Assembly (NCBI GenBank): GCA_020343435.1
Contig: CP070794.1
Location: 33,891 to 78,301, forward strand
Length of the DNA: 44,411 bases
From: an archaeon
GTDB taxonomy: Archaea > Nanobdellota > Nanobdellia > Pacearchaeales > UBA284
Direction of reading: 5' to 3'
Each line of letters starts with the position of its first letter. The first letter of the stretch is position 1. The position numbers and the translations under genes are program-made. Of the stretch, positions 35,970 through 41,028 are shown in pieces. The notes under the pieces are model-generated. The model had not been told where the DNA came from. It saw only the letters and a program-made list of their open reading frames with translations, and did not search any database.

Positions 35970-37219
35970 AAAAAGAGTTTAATATCAAAGTTAAAGTAAT
36001 AACTAAAGAAAAAACGTATGAAGGAATTCTTTTAGAGAGTCATGATTCTAAAATTATTCTATTAAAATTAAAAAATGGATATAACATTGGAATAAAAAAA
36101 GATTCTATTTTGAAAATTACTAAACTCTCTAATTTGAAAGAACAAAAAACTAAGAAAACAGATCAGGATAAGACTCTTCCCAAGATTGCAATCATAGCAA
36201 CAGGAGGAACTATTGCTTCAAAAGTAGATTATCAAACTGGTGGAGTTCTTGCTGTTGAGAATCCTTATGATCTATTAGAAAACTTTCCTGAACTTAAAAA
36301 AATTATAAGATTTGAAGTTCATGTTCCTTTTAGTGATGATAGTTCCCAAGTCTCTCCAAAAGAATGGGTTAGGTGGTCTAAACTTGTTGCTAAGTTAGTT
36401 AATATGCCTCAAATAAAAGGTGTTGTAATTTTACATGGAACAGATACCTTACATTACTCTGCTTCAGCATTATCTTTTATGTTACATAATTTGAATAAAC
36501 CAGTTGTTTTTACCTTTAGTCAGAGAAGCGTTGATAGGGGTTCAAGTGATTCTTTTTTAAATATAAGATGTGCTTGTCATGCTGCATTAAGTAATATTGC
36601 TGAAGTGATGGTTGTTGGTCATGAGAAATCTGATGATGATTCTTGTTTAATGATAAGAGGAACTAAAGTTAGAAAGATGCATTCAAGTATTAGGGGAGCT
36701 TTTAAACCTATTAATGAGAATCCTTTAGCCAAAGTATTTTCAGATGGCAGAATAGATATTTTGAATCACAAGTTTAGAAAAAGACATGAAGGAAAAGTTA
36801 AACCTTTATCTTTTTTTGAAGAAAAAACTGCCTTAGTTAAGTTTTTTCCAGGAAGTTCTTCTGAGATCTTAGATTCTTTAATTAAGAAGGGGTATAAAGG
36901 AATTATTATTGAAGCTGTTGGTTTAGGCCAATTACCTGTAGAAGGAACAAATTCATGGTTAACTAAGATTAAACAAGCTATTTATAAGAAAATATTTGTT
37001 GGAGTGACTTCTCAAACAATTTATGGGAGAGTTAATCCTTATGTTTATTCTCCTTCGAGAAAAGTGGAAAAAGCTGGAGCTGTTTATCTGAAAGATATGT
37101 TATCTGAAACAGCTTATGTTAAGTTAGGATGGCTCTTAGGACAAAAAAAGAAATTTAAGGAATTGAGCAAAGAAATGCTAGAGAACAAATCTCATGAGTT
37201 CAATGAAAGGATGTTTTAA
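35966..37219 (+). CDS. gatD: Glu-tRNA(Gln) amidotransferase subunit D
   Basis: KL.NGYNIG N-terminal domain, TGGTIAS, HGTDT, SQRS.DR.SSD, RKMH, ETAYVKLGW. Start ATG 35966 overlaps the GNAT stop. Confidence 0.92.
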   Translation: MKKEFNIKVKVITKEKTYEGILLESHDSKIILLKLKNGYNIGIKKDSILKITKLSNLKEQKTKKTDQDKTLPKIAIIATGGTIASKVDYQTGGVLAVENPYDLLENFPELKKIIRFEVHVPFSDDSSQVSPKEWVRWSKLVAKLVNMPQIKGVVILHGTDTLHYSASALSFMLHNLNKPVVFTFSQRSVDRGSSDSFLNIRCACHAALSNIAEVMVVGHEKSDDDSCLMIRGTKVRKMHSSIRGAFKPINENPLAKVFSDGRIDILNHKFRKRHEGKVKPLSFFEEKTALVKFFPGSSSEILDSLIKKGYKGIIIEAVGLGQLPVEGTNSWLTKIKQAIYKKIFVGVTSQTIYGRVNPYVYSPSRKVEKAGAVYLKDMLSETAYVKLGWLLGQKKKFKELSKEMLENKSHEFNERMF

Positions 37220-37239
37220 CTTTAGAGTTACAAGATAGC

Positions 37240-37246
37240 TTTATAA
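37240..37246 (+). promoter_or_regulatory. TATA box upstream of the candidate ncRNA
   Basis: TTTATAA ending ~22-25 nt before the 5' strand of the terminal helix. Confidence 0.6.
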
Positions 37247-37267
37247 CTTCTAGAAAAGTATCAAATC

Positions 37268-37497
37268 TAAGCCGATTAGGACATTTCGGTTGCTCTGGAA
37301 AGAGTGCTACTACAGGGCCTCTGTTCAGTGTCTTGCAAGTAGTTTTGCGACTGGACTACAAACTCGCATTACGAAACCTGCACTGTTTAAGCTTATCTGT
37401 GGGGCGAAGGAGACAACCTCTAAAACAAGCCAATAGGTTCGTCTAAAGTTTGGTAGTTGTTTGAGGCACTTTTTCACCGAGTCCAGATATCGGCTTA
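37268..37497 (+). ncRNA. Unclassified ~230-nt structured RNA
   Basis: About 45% GC by hand count in a strongly AT-rich window, with no ORF in the track. Nested helices close the 5' and 3' ends (TAAGCCGAT/ATCGGCTTA and others); G-U pairs favour the + strand; TATA box upstream. Confidence 0.75.
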
Positions 37498-37516
37498 ATA
37501 TTCAAAAGAGGGTGAA

Positions 37517-37690
37517 ATGGTTAGAAGAAAAAGAAAGAAAAAAAGAAGAAGAGGAGTTAGAAGAAAAATTAAAAAAGTTAAAAAAAGAGTAAAAAAAAGA
37601 ACCCAAAAAAAACATTCAAGAAGAGCAAGTAAAAAAAACAAGATTTCTAAAGTTAAAAAATTATTAAGACTTTACAAAAGAAGAAAGTAG
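37517..37690 (+). CDS. Protamine-like Arg/Lys-rich peptide (57 aa); not in ORF track
   Basis: MVRRKRKKKRRRGVRRKIKKVKKRVKKRTQKKHSRRASKKNKISKVKKLLRLYKRRK; GAGGGTGA Shine-Dalgarno-like at 37508-15. Confidence 0.72.
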   Translation: MVRRKRKKKRRRGVRRKIKKVKKRVKKRTQKKHSRRASKKNKISKVKKLLRLYKRRK

Positions 37691-37734
37691 TTCTATAACA
37701 AAAGATTTATAATTTAATTTAGTGATATATATCT

Positions 37735-40700
37735 ATGAAAAGAGGGGCATTAATCCTAGTTTTAATTATTTTATTTTTTGTAAGTATAACTCTAATTTCT
37801 GCAGAAGAATATATTGAAGATGGCTATAAATATGCTAATTATAGCCAATTCTTATTTTCTTCAAAAAACAAGATTTCTTGTACTTATTTGCCAGGTGAAG
37901 ATTGGAAAACATGTGAACCAATTGTTGAAGTAAATAATACAGGTGATAATGAATCTATAAACAAAAATCTAATATCTAAAGTAGTAGATATCCCTAGTAG
38001 AAATCTAGATATCTACTATACTTATGATTTTGAGTATTATAATGAATCTATTTATTTTGATGTAGAGAATGAGACAGATATAGAATGTCTTGAGGATTTT
38101 GATTGTGATGATGATAATGAAGATACTTGGGATTTTTGTGTTGGGGTAAATATAACAAACATGACTGAAGGTAATTGTACTTACCATTACCAAGACTATT
38201 ATAATGTTCTTAGAAAAAGGTTTCTTAATTGGCAAGAAGCTGGAAATCAAATAGTACTTCAGACAGGAATAACTGGATTAATGTTGGTATTTGATGTTGA
38301 AAAATACAAAGCAGGACATTTTAATGTTAGTGTTGGGAGTTATACAATTGATCCAGATATTGATGCTTGTGGAACATTATCAAGTGCAAACACAATTTAC
38401 ACTTTAAATCAAAGTGTAAATTCAACAGGAACTTGTTTCAACATTACAGCCAATAATGTAACATTGGATTGTGCTGGTTATTGGTTAAATATAACTGATT
38501 CTGGAACCACTTATGCTGTTTATTCTGATCAAAATGATACAACAGTCAAGAATTGTTATATCTGGGATGTTAGTGGAGATGCAGATGGAATAACATTTAG
38601 TGGTGTTAATGGTGCTACAATTTTTAATAATACAATGAATTCAAGTTCTTCTGGAGCTGATTTTATTACCATAACTAATAGTGATGACATAAATGTTACA
38701 GGAAATACAGGTTTTACGAGTGGTGGTAGTTCAAGGACTATGTTTTACACTTATTCATCTAACAATATATATCTTAATAATAATAACATGACACATTGGG
38801 GTGGGGGAAGTGCTGGTAATGCTTATAGAATTGGTGCTAGTTATCTTGGATGTGAAAATGTTACTATTCAAAATTCTTATGGTTATTCAGGGTCTTCTTA
38901 TACTTTGGAGATTGTAGGTTCAAAAAATGTTTCAGTAATTAATTCAAATTTTTCTAGTGATAATGTTGGAATTATAAATTTTGCATCTTCATCTGGTTCA
39001 ATAGACTATTATAATCATACATTTACAAATTGTCGTGGTCCTGATGGTGGTTTTGTAAATTATAGTGTTAATGTAAGTGGAATTGTATTAGAAGACCTTA
39101 ATTATTCAGGAGATCATGATTGGATTGGTTTTGCATTTAGTGATAATATAACTATAGATAATTCAACATTTGATGGATCAATAAAGTTTTACTATACAGA
39201 CAATGTATCAATAAATGATGTAACTATTGATACTTCGTGGGAGTATGGTCTTTATTTTTCAAATTCTGATTATTTCAATATAAGTGATTGTTCTATAAAA
39301 GCTGACAATTATAAGTTTTATCAAAGTAGTTCTGATTATTTTAATGTAAGTAATATCACTTTTCCTAGTTATGGTTCAACATATATTTATATTGGTGGTT
39401 CAAGTGATTCAAATTATTCTAGCATGTTTGCTGATGATACTAATGGTTACCCTATGTTAGGATTAGGGTCTGGAAATGATAATCTTTATTTTGATGATAT
39501 TCATTTAAGCACTCAATGTGATGGTTGTTCTAGTGGAACAGCAAGAACGGTTTCTATAACAGGAGATCAAGATAACATTGTTTTTAATAATTCTGTTTTA
39601 ATTAATAATAGAACTACAAGCTGGAACGGAAATAGTCCTTCAATCTATGTTGATGCTGGAACTATGACTAATGTTTCTATATATAATTCAAATTTAACAA
39701 ATTATATTTGGGCAGATGTTTATTGGGACAGCGCAAGCGTTTCAGGAACAATAGATAGAATAAATTGCACAGTATATAATGATTCAAGTGCTGACAAATA
39801 TGACAAATTTGCAGGAGACCTTGGAGCAGTTACAAGGCAATGGTATGCAGATACTTATGTTAATGATACTGCAGGAAGTGCAATAGAAGGTGCAAATGTC
39901 TCAATAACAGATGTTAATTCTAATCTCATTAATTGGAGTTTAACTAATTCTTCTGGATATATCCAAAGATTAACTTTAAGAGAATACTGGCAAAACTACA
40001 CAGCAACTTATTATGATACTAATTATACATTTAATGGAACTTTAGCTGGTTATAATGATGACTCAGAGGAAGTTAATTTAACTAATAATAGAATTAGTGG
40101 AGATGGTGGGATAATTGCTCTAACTTTGCCTCCTGAAGATACAACAGATCCCACTGCAACCTTAGGAACCAATCCTATTGATAATTATGATACTTCAAAT
40201 ACATCAGTTACTTTTGATTTCAAATGTTCAGATAATCTTGGTATAGCTAAGGTAGAATTATGGGGTAATTGGACAGGATCTTGGCATGCCAATTATACTA
40301 ATTCTAGCTATACAAACAATACTTGGTTAAATATTACAGTAAATAACTTTTCAGAAGGAACTTATATCTGGGGAGTTTATTGTAATGACAGTTATGGAAA
40401 TGATAACTGGACAAGTAATAGAACATTTACAATAAGTACTGCTTCTTCTCCAGAAACTCCTGGAGCATCTCCTGGAGGAACTGGAAGTTCTGGTGGAGAA
40501 GGAGTAGATCAGAGTTTGAGAGAAAAGTATTTTTGGCTAAATAATGTAACTTTAGATGAAAATAACAATTCTTATTTTAAGAAATGGGAAAGAGTTCTTA
40601 TAGATGTAAATGGAACAAACCATTCTTTTGGGGTTATAGATATACAATCTGGAAGAGCAAGTGTTCTGGCACAGAGTGCAAACCAATTTGCAGTATTATA

Positions 40701-41028
40701 TTTAGGAGATGAGAGAAAATTCGAAGTAAATGGAGATTCTTTTTATGATGTATATGTAAGATTAAATGACTTATATACTCATAAGGTAAATTTAACTGTT
40801 AGAAAGATTCATGAAGGGTTTTATACTGGTGAAACAGGGGAAGGAGAAACAGCTTCTGAAGAAGATGGAAAATCAGAAAATCTTGTTACTTATATTGAAG
40901 GATTTTCTGAAAACCTGTTATCAGTCTACCAAATCCTCATAATAGTTCTAGTTATTTTTGCTGTTATTATTCTAACCCAGGTTTTTAGAAAAAAGAGAGA
41001 TTTAAGATCCGTAAGCTTTAAATACTGA
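37735..41028 (+). CDS. Large surface glycoprotein with right-handed parallel beta-helix and Ig-like domains, C-terminal TM
   Basis: Signal peptide; TCFNITANNVTLDCAG (beta-helix cap), Asn/Ser-rich repeats, GTYIWGVYCND Ig motif, very many NxS/T sequons, TM + RKKR. Confidence 0.88.
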   Translation: MKRGALILVLIILFFVSITLISAEEYIEDGYKYANYSQFLFSSKNKISCTYLPGEDWKTCEPIVEVNNTGDNESINKNLISKVVDIPSRNLDIYYTYDFEYYNESIYFDVENETDIECLEDFDCDDDNEDTWDFCVGVNITNMTEGNCTYHYQDYYNVLRKRFLNWQEAGNQIVLQTGITGLMLVFDVEKYKAGHFNVSVGSYTIDPDIDACGTLSSANTIYTLNQSVNSTGTCFNITANNVTLDCAGYWLNITDSGTTYAVYSDQNDTTVKNCYIWDVSGDADGITFSGVNGATIFNNTMNSSSSGADFITITNSDDINVTGNTGFTSGGSSRTMFYTYSSNNIYLNNNNMTHWGGGSAGNAYRIGASYLGCENVTIQNSYGYSGSSYTLEIVGSKNVSVINSNFSSDNVGIINFASSSGSIDYYNHTFTNCRGPDGGFVNYSVNVSGIVLEDLNYSGDHDWIGFAFSDNITIDNSTFDGSIKFYYTDNVSINDVTIDTSWEYGLYFSNSDYFNISDCSIKADNYKFYQSSSDYFNVSNITFPSYGSTYIYIGGSSDSNYSSMFADDTNGYPMLGLGSGNDNLYFDDIHLSTQCDGCSSGTARTVSITGDQDNIVFNNSVLINNRTTSWNGNSPSIYVDAGTMTNVSIYNSNLTNYIWADVYWDSASVSGTIDRINCTVYNDSSADKYDKFAGDLGAVTRQWYADTYVNDTAGSAIEGANVSITDVNSNLINWSLTNSSGYIQRLTLREYWQNYTATYYDTNYTFNGTLAGYNDDSEEVNLTNNRISGDGGIIALTLPPEDTTDPTATLGTNPIDNYDTSNTSVTFDFKCSDNLGIAKVELWGNWTGSWHANYTNSSYTNNTWLNITVNNFSEGTYIWGVYCNDSYGNDNWTSNRTFTISTASSPETPGASPGGTGSSGGEGVDQSLREKYFWLNNVTLDENNNSYFKKWERVLIDVNGTNHSFGVIDIQSGRASVLAQSANQFAVLYLGDERKFEVNGDSFYDVYVRLNDLYTHKVNLTVRKIHEGFYTGETGEGETASEEDGKSENLVTYIEGFSENLLSVYQILIIVLVIFAVIILTQVFRKKRDLRSVSFKY

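Follow-up and report, generated by a model that had tools for sequence, protein, structure and literature searches.

What is the relationship between a structured RNA and the tiny, extremely basic peptide encoded directly downstream of it? The question is raised by positions 37268 to 37690 of a 44,411-nt stretch of DNA (referred to here as the window; GenBank assembly GCA_020343435.1, contig CP070794.1, positions 33,891 to 78,301 of the forward strand) from an archaeon of the order Pacearchaeales whose genome is a single contig of 647,887 bases. An initial annotation of this locus had offered two answers, namely an RNA with a dedicated binding partner in a ribonucleoprotein, or a structured 5′ leader regulating a DNA-condensing peptide. 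In this study, we found that the RNA is an intron of the bulge-helix-bulge (BHB) type in the 5′ untranslated region (UTR) of the peptide mRNA, and that the intron occurs as a circle. The unit is laid out as follows.

37218–37229, + strand: palindrome AACTTTAGAGTT, 10 nt 5′ of the TATA box and overlapping the stop codon of gatD
37240–37246, + strand: TATA box TTTATAA of the unit; nearly all loci have a TATA-like box about 22–30 nt 5′ of the outer helix
37269–37284, + strand: putative 5′ exon, composed of an outer-helix strand (37269–37278), GGAC (37279–37282) and two bulge bases (37283–37284)
37285–37486, + strand: excised intron, the 202-nt circular RNA (contig junction and covariation-supported structure)
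37292–37305, + strand: hairpin with a GNRA tetraloop; helix of 5 pairs, 98.5% paired
37351–37356, + strand: loop CUGGAC, the 5′ strand of a putative pseudoknot or kissing loop with 37481–37486 (covariation)
37481–37487, + strand: GUCC, shared by the central BHB helix (as its 3′ strand) and the pseudoknot, then the 3′ bulge AGA, cut between 37486 and 37487
37487–37516, + strand: start of the 3′ exon, with an outer-helix strand (37488–37496), a spacer and the Shine-Dalgarno-like GAGGGTGA (37508–37515)
37517–37690, + strand: gene for the 57-aa polybasic protein, with an ATG start; conserved core residues 34–53 correspond to 37616–37675

The bulge-helix-bulge motif and the circular junction

According to excerpts of a published account, a BHB motif consists of a 4-bp helix and two 3-nt bulges on opposite strands, placed between two further helices (PMC7714728). 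The window locus is an archaeal BHB intron by this definition. Its central helix comprises 4 bp (GGAC 37279–37282 with GUCC 37481–37484), the bulges are AUU (37283–37285) and AGA (37485–37487), and the flanking helices are an outer one (37269–37278 with 37488–37496) and an inner one (UCGGU 37286–37290 with ACCGA 37476–37480), so that the 3′ side reads, along the RNA, inner helix, central helix, bulge and outer helix. At least three of the four central pairs are present in 29 of 35 anchored copies of the RNA, the other six being without the helix; seven further copies were not anchored by the script. Covariation statistics were taken from 41 aligned copies from the order, in an alignment that was fitted to a covariance model and therefore favours nested helices. 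All eight outer-helix pairs show changes on both sides, and the 5′ exon strand of the central helix covaries too.

Evidence on the fate of this intron came from assembled contigs (not raw reads) of two metatranscriptomes, a soil run (X1) and a salt-marsh run (X2). These contigs span the RNA region; the exons, the open reading frame (ORF) and the flanking genes lie outside their cover, which counts neither way. One X1 contig of 199 nt carries 37410–37486 running directly into 37285–37406, with 3 mismatches in 77 nt and none in 122 nt, respectively. The junction 37486 to 37285 has zero letters between its two sides and is a back-step of 202. A second, more divergent X1 contig has 37461–37487 directly before 37286–37307, and a third X1 variant, a loose end, passes from 37486 to the 5′ portion of the RNA of a relative; the same direct junction is thus present in three sequence variants. 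An X2 contig starts at 37285. The position of the junction, behind the second base of each bulge, matches the cuts predicted from the motif (37284/37285 and 37486/37487). Tandem DNA was rejected as its source: this would place outer-helix strands between the copies, as in the tandem locus L106 described below, and the contigs are without such a spacer. The genome encodes both the splicing endonuclease EndA (PF01974; G000:C1:205657–205914, 102.8 bits) and the ligase RtcB (PF01139; C1:103531–104820, 537.9 bits). Taking together the junction at the bulges, the spacer-free contigs and the presence of EndA and RtcB, we conclude that 37285–37486 is excised and circularised.

Conservation, fold and identity of the RNA

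The RNA region stands out by its base composition, with a GC content of 0.44–0.45 at 37250–37499 compared with 0.19–0.36 in the flanks. A first search for homologues, in which 100 relatives were scanned with BLAST, yielded some 20 full-length matches with 68–76% identity, and from 20 of these RNAalifold produced a fold of 70 pairs, 45 of them with compensatory changes. In the 41 copies, 93.9% of the cells are paired and 60 of the 72 pairs change on both sides, a level of covariation that none of 500 shuffles reached; slid controls were just 29.5–43.4% paired. In the circle region the model has 201 columns, of which 27 show no variation and 88 reach at least 90% conservation. The hairpin at 37292–37305 closes with GGAA in the window and with GGAA or GAAA across the relatives. 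Single-sequence folding was of little use: the linear 241-nt RNA gave z = −2.77 and the circular 202-nt RNA z = −0.76, with a minimum-free-energy fold that differs from the one supported by covariation.

Several known classes were considered for the RNA and rejected. Rfam 15 gave no match in the window at the gathering score. At E ≤ 10 over 37150–37760 there were three chance-level matches, of which a single one (RT-11, 37331–37458, 13.8 bits compared with 143.5) lies within the RNA, while the remaining two begin in the upstream flank and touch only its first bases. The same threshold applied to 14 homologous loci returned three matches, all in the flanks and none recurring. Known Rfam families are thus ruled out by matches that are weak, scattered and not recurrent, the scan having been of the linear, non-rotated sequence. 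ARAGORN found no tRNA or tmRNA in the window; RNase P RNA, signal recognition particle (SRP) RNA and 5S rRNA have their own genes elsewhere in the genome (128, 97.8 and 69.3 bits). As for a C/D box guide RNA, RUGAUGA occurs in one of the 41 copies and a C box followed by a D box (CUGA) in none. Nor is the RNA itself coding: over the circle region, the longest stop-free run is 34 codons in the median copy and 24 at the least, and no frame is conserved. That we are dealing with a non-coding RNA that is functional, excised and circular seems to us highly probable.

The strand on the 3′ side of the central helix can find a partner elsewhere in the molecule as well. GUCCAG (37481–37486) is also complementary to the loop CUGGAC (37351–37356), and in the 41 copies this helix of 6 pairs is 93.8% paired, 4 pairs changing on both sides; since the covariance model did not contain this helix, the fit of the alignment owes nothing to it. 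Pair types between the loop and the 3′ segment include GGAC/GUCC, GGGC/GCCC and GAAC/GUUC, the adjacent pair being U-A, C-G or A-U. GUCC(AG) has, then, two mutually exclusive partners, the 5′ GGAC and the loop CUGGAC, and both pairings covary. In the uncut transcript GUCC would hold the BHB motif together, whereas after cutting its exon partner would be gone, and the covariation suggests that a pseudoknot or kissing loop can form by refolding once the RNA is excised. The ligated junction would form a 7-nt loop on the inner helix, able to kiss the CUGGAC loop. It is because of this second pairing that GAGUCC is kept even in copies that have no BHB motif.

Two competing partners are also what might be expected of a regulatory intron or leader that senses a ligand, the peptide, temperature or ions. 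Pairing of GUCCAG with the 5′ GGAC would then lead to removal of the intron and pairing with CUGGAC to its retention, translation of the peptide would be controlled in this way, and the circle would be a by-product. Besides the covariation of both partners, the copies without a BHB motif are in line with such control, as their ATG follows the pseudoknot strand by 9–14 nt with no Shine-Dalgarno sequence. So is the 5′-UTR intron of HVO_1309 in Haloferax volcanii, which has been discussed as possibly regulatory (PMC7714728). Four observations argue in the other direction. Two genomes of one genus (G034 and G039) keep the RNA and an intact BHB without the peptide gene, so that the RNA is not always upstream of a gene to be controlled. 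The accessibility of the Shine-Dalgarno sequence and AUG is predicted to be the same before and after splicing (0.67 and 0.70), which leaves simple masking unsupported; for the first 60 nt of the joined exons, the prediction is an 8-bp hairpin with an open region behind it. Contigs confined to the circle were assembled in two environmental RNA studies, as would suit a product that accumulates, and the RNA matches no known riboswitch class. In our view regulation as the primary role is quite unlikely. The structured 5′ leader of the initial annotation survives to the extent that the RNA does lie in the 5′ UTR of the peptide gene; it is not a plain leader but an excised and circularised BHB intron, and a purely cis-acting function is weakened by the persistence of RNA and BHB without the peptide in the two genomes just mentioned.

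The polybasic peptide and its linkage to the RNA

The ORF at 37517–37690 (+ strand) encodes 57 residues, 36 of them Lys or Arg and none Asp or Glu, a composition that the initial annotation had reported and that the ORF list and a residue count bear out. The Shine-Dalgarno-like sequence that it had seen is GAGGGTGA at 37508–37515, ending 1 nt before the ATG. The basic ORFs that follow RNA copies are on the same strand as the RNA, encode 38–75 aa and share, across the order, a core that reads R-x-[PA]-S-[KNG]-K-x-K-x-[SN]-K-[VI]-x-K-[LIM]. Conserved residues are written in varied codons: one Ser as AGT (18), AGC (14), TCA (1) or TCC (1), a second Ser as TCT (17), TCC (7), TCA (5), AGC (2) or AGT (1), the conserved Arg as AGA (23), AGG (7), CGT (3) or CGA (2), and the conserved Leu as CTT, TTA, CTC or TTG. 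That a core of the form R-x-[PA]-S-K-K-S-K-x-S-K-[VI]-x-K-[LI] is kept through synonymous changes, including those within six-fold codon families, indicates purifying selection on the protein, on which the proposal of a real gene had depended. We have little doubt that the peptide is a translated protein. The mean pairwise identity of the peptides (0.34) is far lower than that of the RNAs (0.70). At the locus L080 (G265a), the peptide carries the core motif twice in tandem within 69 aa.

No known family accounts for the peptide. In Pfam at E ≤ 10, the best match of the window peptide reached 13 bits compared with a cut-off of 26.1, and none of 35 aligned peptides had a match at E ≤ 0.01. NCBIfam gave no match to the peptide, a profile search of the PDB with it gave none at E ≤ 10, and neither PADLOC nor PHROGs matched any of the 35 peptides. 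The ESM Atlas gave no identity, its cluster being from Nanobdellota. Known small basic proteins (ribosomal protein L41e, protamines and any Pfam or NCBIfam family) were rejected because no profile matched. The 20 database homologues are unnamed or called 'hypothetical protein', and their sources are given as Pacearchaeota or Woesearchaeota archaeon. A hydrophobic-moment scan was uninformative: the highest value fell within the N-terminal part, and the conserved segment near the C terminus gave a second peak.

Composition alone (36 of 57 residues Lys or Arg, none acidic) would suit a protamine-like protein that condenses DNA and is made from an mRNA with a long structured leader, as the initial annotation had considered. 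The findings lend nothing to that idea. Neither the 35 family members nor, at E ≤ 10, the window peptide matches Pfam; the peptide is absent from three quarters of the related, equally small genomes; and the supposed leader is excised, circularised and conserved where the peptide is missing. DNA condensation is, in our judgement, the least credible of the explanations considered here.

RNA and peptide share one transcript, since the closing helix spans the RNA and there is no room for a promoter before the ATG, which in most BHB loci lies 15–37 nt 3′ of the conserved GAGUCC. In the window, about 20 nt separate the end of the 3′ strand of the closing helix (37496) from the ATG (37517), and inspection by eye of 37497–37516 found neither a T-run nor a TATA box, in agreement with the initial annotation. 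The co-transcription that it held to be plausible is imposed by this anatomy. Transcription would start near 37269, judging from the usual archaeal spacing to the TATA box. Within 80 nt 5′ of the RNA, 21 of 41 loci contain ACT-N2-8-AGT, compared with 5.5 expected from shuffles, and a protein that regulates transcription of the module may bind at this palindrome, as far as the sequence allows one to say. It is often followed by GGT or GAT.

For the distribution of the pair, a covariance model of the RNA was run over 151 genomes of the order and 150 further genomes sampled across the phylum, and a profile built from 35 peptides was used in a six-frame search of the same 151 genomes. The RNA is present in 38 of the 151 genomes (by family: f1 11/23, f2 1/1, f3 1/4, f4 0/5, f5 0/1, f6 0/1, f7 2/4, f8 3/5 and f9 19/106) and in 13 of the 150 further genomes, all 13 labelled as belonging to the same class but to other families. 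Such a patchy distribution indicates that the module is dispensable. The peptide profile matched 38 places in 33 of the 151 genomes; every one of the 38 is directly downstream of an RNA copy, and the 113 genomes of the order that are without the RNA gave no match. Conversely, 37 of the 41 RNA copies aligned from the order are followed by a basic ORF with the core motif, as are 10 of 10 evaluable copies from other orders, an eleventh lying at a contig edge. Five genomes with two RNAs (G010, G019, G021, G022 and G023) also hold two peptide copies. The prediction that RNA homologues would consistently be followed by a basic ORF thus proved correct. A scan of genome contigs for a 14-base loop motif gave mostly chance matches, and 66 of the 80 loci examined were not the RNA. 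Four true RNA matches (L096, L101, L126 and L137; 177–216 bits) lie in records titled Candidatus Micrarchaeota archaeon, so that either these labels are loose or the RNA extends beyond the sampled class; L101 and L137 (GC 0.51) have no motif-bearing peptide within about 260 nt of the RNA. At three loci of one genus (L013 in G022a, L065 in G023b and L067 in G019b) the gap between RNA and ORF is 115–135 nt, and two of the three gaps contain a further conserved hairpin-like element, GATTTTGGTG...GTTGCAAAATC.

The exceptions to this linkage are few. G034 and G039 have no such ORF; their RNA keeps the BHB motif, and after it comes either a T-run that resembles a terminator or a promoter belonging to the next gene (in G039, a TATA box of that gene). 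In G143 (L072), a motif-like frame has no start and an in-frame stop, and the 3′ end of the RNA is without GAGUCC, which looks like a decaying copy. G048 has a weak RNA match (64 bits) and a different basic ORF. A related case is L106 (positions 311–772), on a contig of a metagenome-assembled genome labelled Nanoarchaeota archaeon, where two tandem RNAs, each with BHB-like ends, precede one basic-peptide gene; as read from its sequence, this is a case of two introns in one 5′ UTR. With the RNA alone in G034 and G039, in tandem in L106 and more conserved than the peptide, it looks like the primary product of the unit.

These same exceptions are what one would expect if RNA and peptide were related only as guest and host gene. 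The circle would act in trans, for example on the translation or RNA-processing machinery, and the peptide would be an unrelated small basic protein, associated for example with the ribosome or the nucleoid; its gene would do no more than house the intron and share a promoter with it, as other genes host intronic snoRNAs. The RNA without the peptide in one genus (g22), the two RNA copies before a single peptide gene in L106 and an RNA conservation far above that of the peptide all agree with this. An independent housekeeping protein, however, would be expected in relatives without the RNA too, whereas the peptide is never found apart from it (0 of 113 such genomes; 38 of 38 places adjacent), and the pair moves jointly across unrelated genomic contexts. 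We consider a mere host-gene relation unlikely. At the level of sequence, this obligate co-inheritance strongly suggests that RNA and peptide act together.

The genes around the pair offer no further partner. Housekeeping genes that differ between loci make up most of the 84 nearest flanking ORFs (among them genes for GatD, SMC, RNase HII, aminoacyl-tRNA synthetases, EF-1 alpha, S10 and diphthamide synthase), and 2 of the 84 belong to the integrase family. As no neighbour recurs, the RNA–peptide pair is an autonomous unit. Such autonomy in variable contexts could point to a selfish or conflict module, in which a polycationic peptide would be harmful when free and the RNA would neutralise it, loosely as in type III toxin-antitoxin systems. 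These have the RNA first and the protein second, the order seen here, and the patchy occurrence in tiny genomes and occasional duplication would also suit such a module. Against this, none of the 35 peptides matches PADLOC or PHROGs, the RNA is one complex multi-helix fold and not a series of tandem short repeats, and the neighbours are housekeeping genes, not mobile elements. That the RNA occurs alone in g22 and the peptide never does would fit a leftover antitoxin equally well and does not discriminate. A conflict module is, we believe, very improbable.

In the window itself, the gene directly upstream of the unit is gatD, encoding subunit D of the archaeal Glu-tRNA(Gln) amidotransferase (449 bits). 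Downstream, 37735–41028 (+ strand) is a 1097-aa ORF with hydrophobic segments at the N- and C-terminal ends, many N-x-S/T sites, weak matches to beta-helix and CarboxypepD_reg, and its own TATA-like box after the peptide stop; it probably encodes a surface protein.

Proposed mechanism and comparison with known systems

We propose that one promoter gives one precursor, and that the precursor gives two products. The 5′ leader and the stretch just before the ORF would pair around the canonical BHB motif; EndA would cut after the second base of each 3-nt bulge (37284/37285 and 37486/37487), and RtcB would close the 202-nt intron into a circle and join the exons. GUCCAG, freed from the 5′ exon, would re-pair with CUGGAC, and the compact kissing-loop fold would accumulate as a stable non-coding RNA. 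The joined exons would be a short hairpin-leader mRNA for the 57-aa Lys/Arg-rich protein, which would bind the circle by charge neutralisation and one conserved amphipathic segment to form a small ribonucleoprotein, the single transcript coupling the synthesis of the two. This overall explanation, a circle and a co-expressed RNA-binding peptide from one precursor, has in our judgement an even chance of being correct.

A number of points weigh against it. The junction comes from contigs of one study (X1), from near-identical or related organisms and not from the strain of the window, and RNA libraries of this kind can contain DNA. That the exons are ligated to each other is something we infer, contig cover stopping short of them. 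The RNA is patchily spread (38 of 151 and 13 of 150 genomes), and genus g22 (G034 and G039, 90% and 84% complete) has it without any peptide match. About a quarter of the copies have no canonical BHB motif. Six of them (G054, G049, G139, G117, G005 and G143) have no outer helix; these have a TATA box about 25–30 nt before the RNA core and the ATG 9–14 nt after GAGUCC, so that the transcript seems to start at the core. In five others (G100, G060, G079, G104 and G051) the outer helix is kept and the 5′ strand of the central helix is absent. The RNA may stay attached to the mRNA in copies without the BHB, and circularity may not be universal. Finally, binding of the RNA by the peptide is a putative mechanism, though the one we prefer, and we put its chance at even or slightly below.

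BHB introns in archaeal mRNAs are documented, as far as the excerpts of the two reports go, only for cbf5 and HVO_1309 (PMC7714728; PMC2738675). The latter, in H. volcanii, has a 46-nt BHB intron in its 5′ UTR that is cut by the splicing endonuclease and was recovered as a circle (PMC7714728). What the present unit shares with it is a protein-coding mRNA whose 5′ UTR contains a BHB intron that gives a circular product; the HVO_1309 intron lies before an M24 peptidase gene, and the excerpts report no structure or function of its own (PMC7714728). Here, by contrast, the intron is 202 nt long, very likely pseudoknotted judging from its covariation, and at least 90% conserved at 88 of 201 positions class-wide; it is tied to one dedicated microprotein and also exists as a stand-alone BHB-flanked gene. 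The cbf5 pre-mRNA of Crenarchaeota is a protein-coding transcript spliced at a BHB motif by the tRNA-splicing machinery, according to the available part of the source (PMC2738675). Its intron, from what that part describes, lies within the coding sequence and does not form a conserved structured RNA, whereas here the UTR intron is the most conserved element.

Two further groups of RNAs invite comparison, and in both the likeness is partial. Introns host functional RNAs elsewhere: a C/D box sRNA resides in the archaeal tRNA-Trp intron, and eukaryotic snoRNAs reside in introns of host genes. As in those cases, splicing here would free a functional RNA while the exons give a second product; the present RNA differs in having no C/D boxes and a multi-helix, putatively pseudoknotted fold of about 200 nt, and its host product is a polybasic protein of 40–75 aa that occurs solely with the RNA. 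Other circular RNAs of archaea include circular pre-16S and pre-23S rRNA and the circularised permuted SRP RNA of Thermoproteus. Circular omega-RNAs in archaea are also on record, in the portion of the report available (PMC12558985). The present RNA resembles these circular RNAs in its BHB- or ligase-dependent circularisation and in being a stable structured RNA, and differs from them in that no Rfam 15 family matches the RNA itself, in the window or in the 14 homologues, and no transposase gene lies alongside.

We found no description of the RNA or the peptide in the open full-text literature, the extent of our search (supplements and subscription journals are outside this coverage), and within that literature the pairing of a circular RNA and a tiny basic protein from one transcript has not been described previously. 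To our knowledge, large, highly conserved structured RNAs without an assigned function are rare, and almost none come from archaea. The circle and the microprotein might even constitute a new class of archaeal ribonucleoprotein, with circularisation as part of its design and a catalytic, structural or host-directed role in symbionts of the Nanoarchaeia type, a tentative reading that we think rather doubtful. In a variant of it, competition between the BHB helix and the pseudoknot would be the first splicing switch in archaea.

In summary, the locus adds a new RNA family and a new protein family, the latter a microprotein overlooked by standard annotation, to what is known of the DPANN archaea. 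It provides a natural case of a messenger whose 5′ UTR is turned by the tRNA-splicing enzymes into the source of a functional circular RNA, and, at 202 nt and 57 aa, the pair is of a size that permits direct biochemical and structural study. On this evidence, the BHB introns of protein-coding transcripts can harbour conserved non-coding RNAs, a point of relevance to the origin of intron-hosted RNAs.

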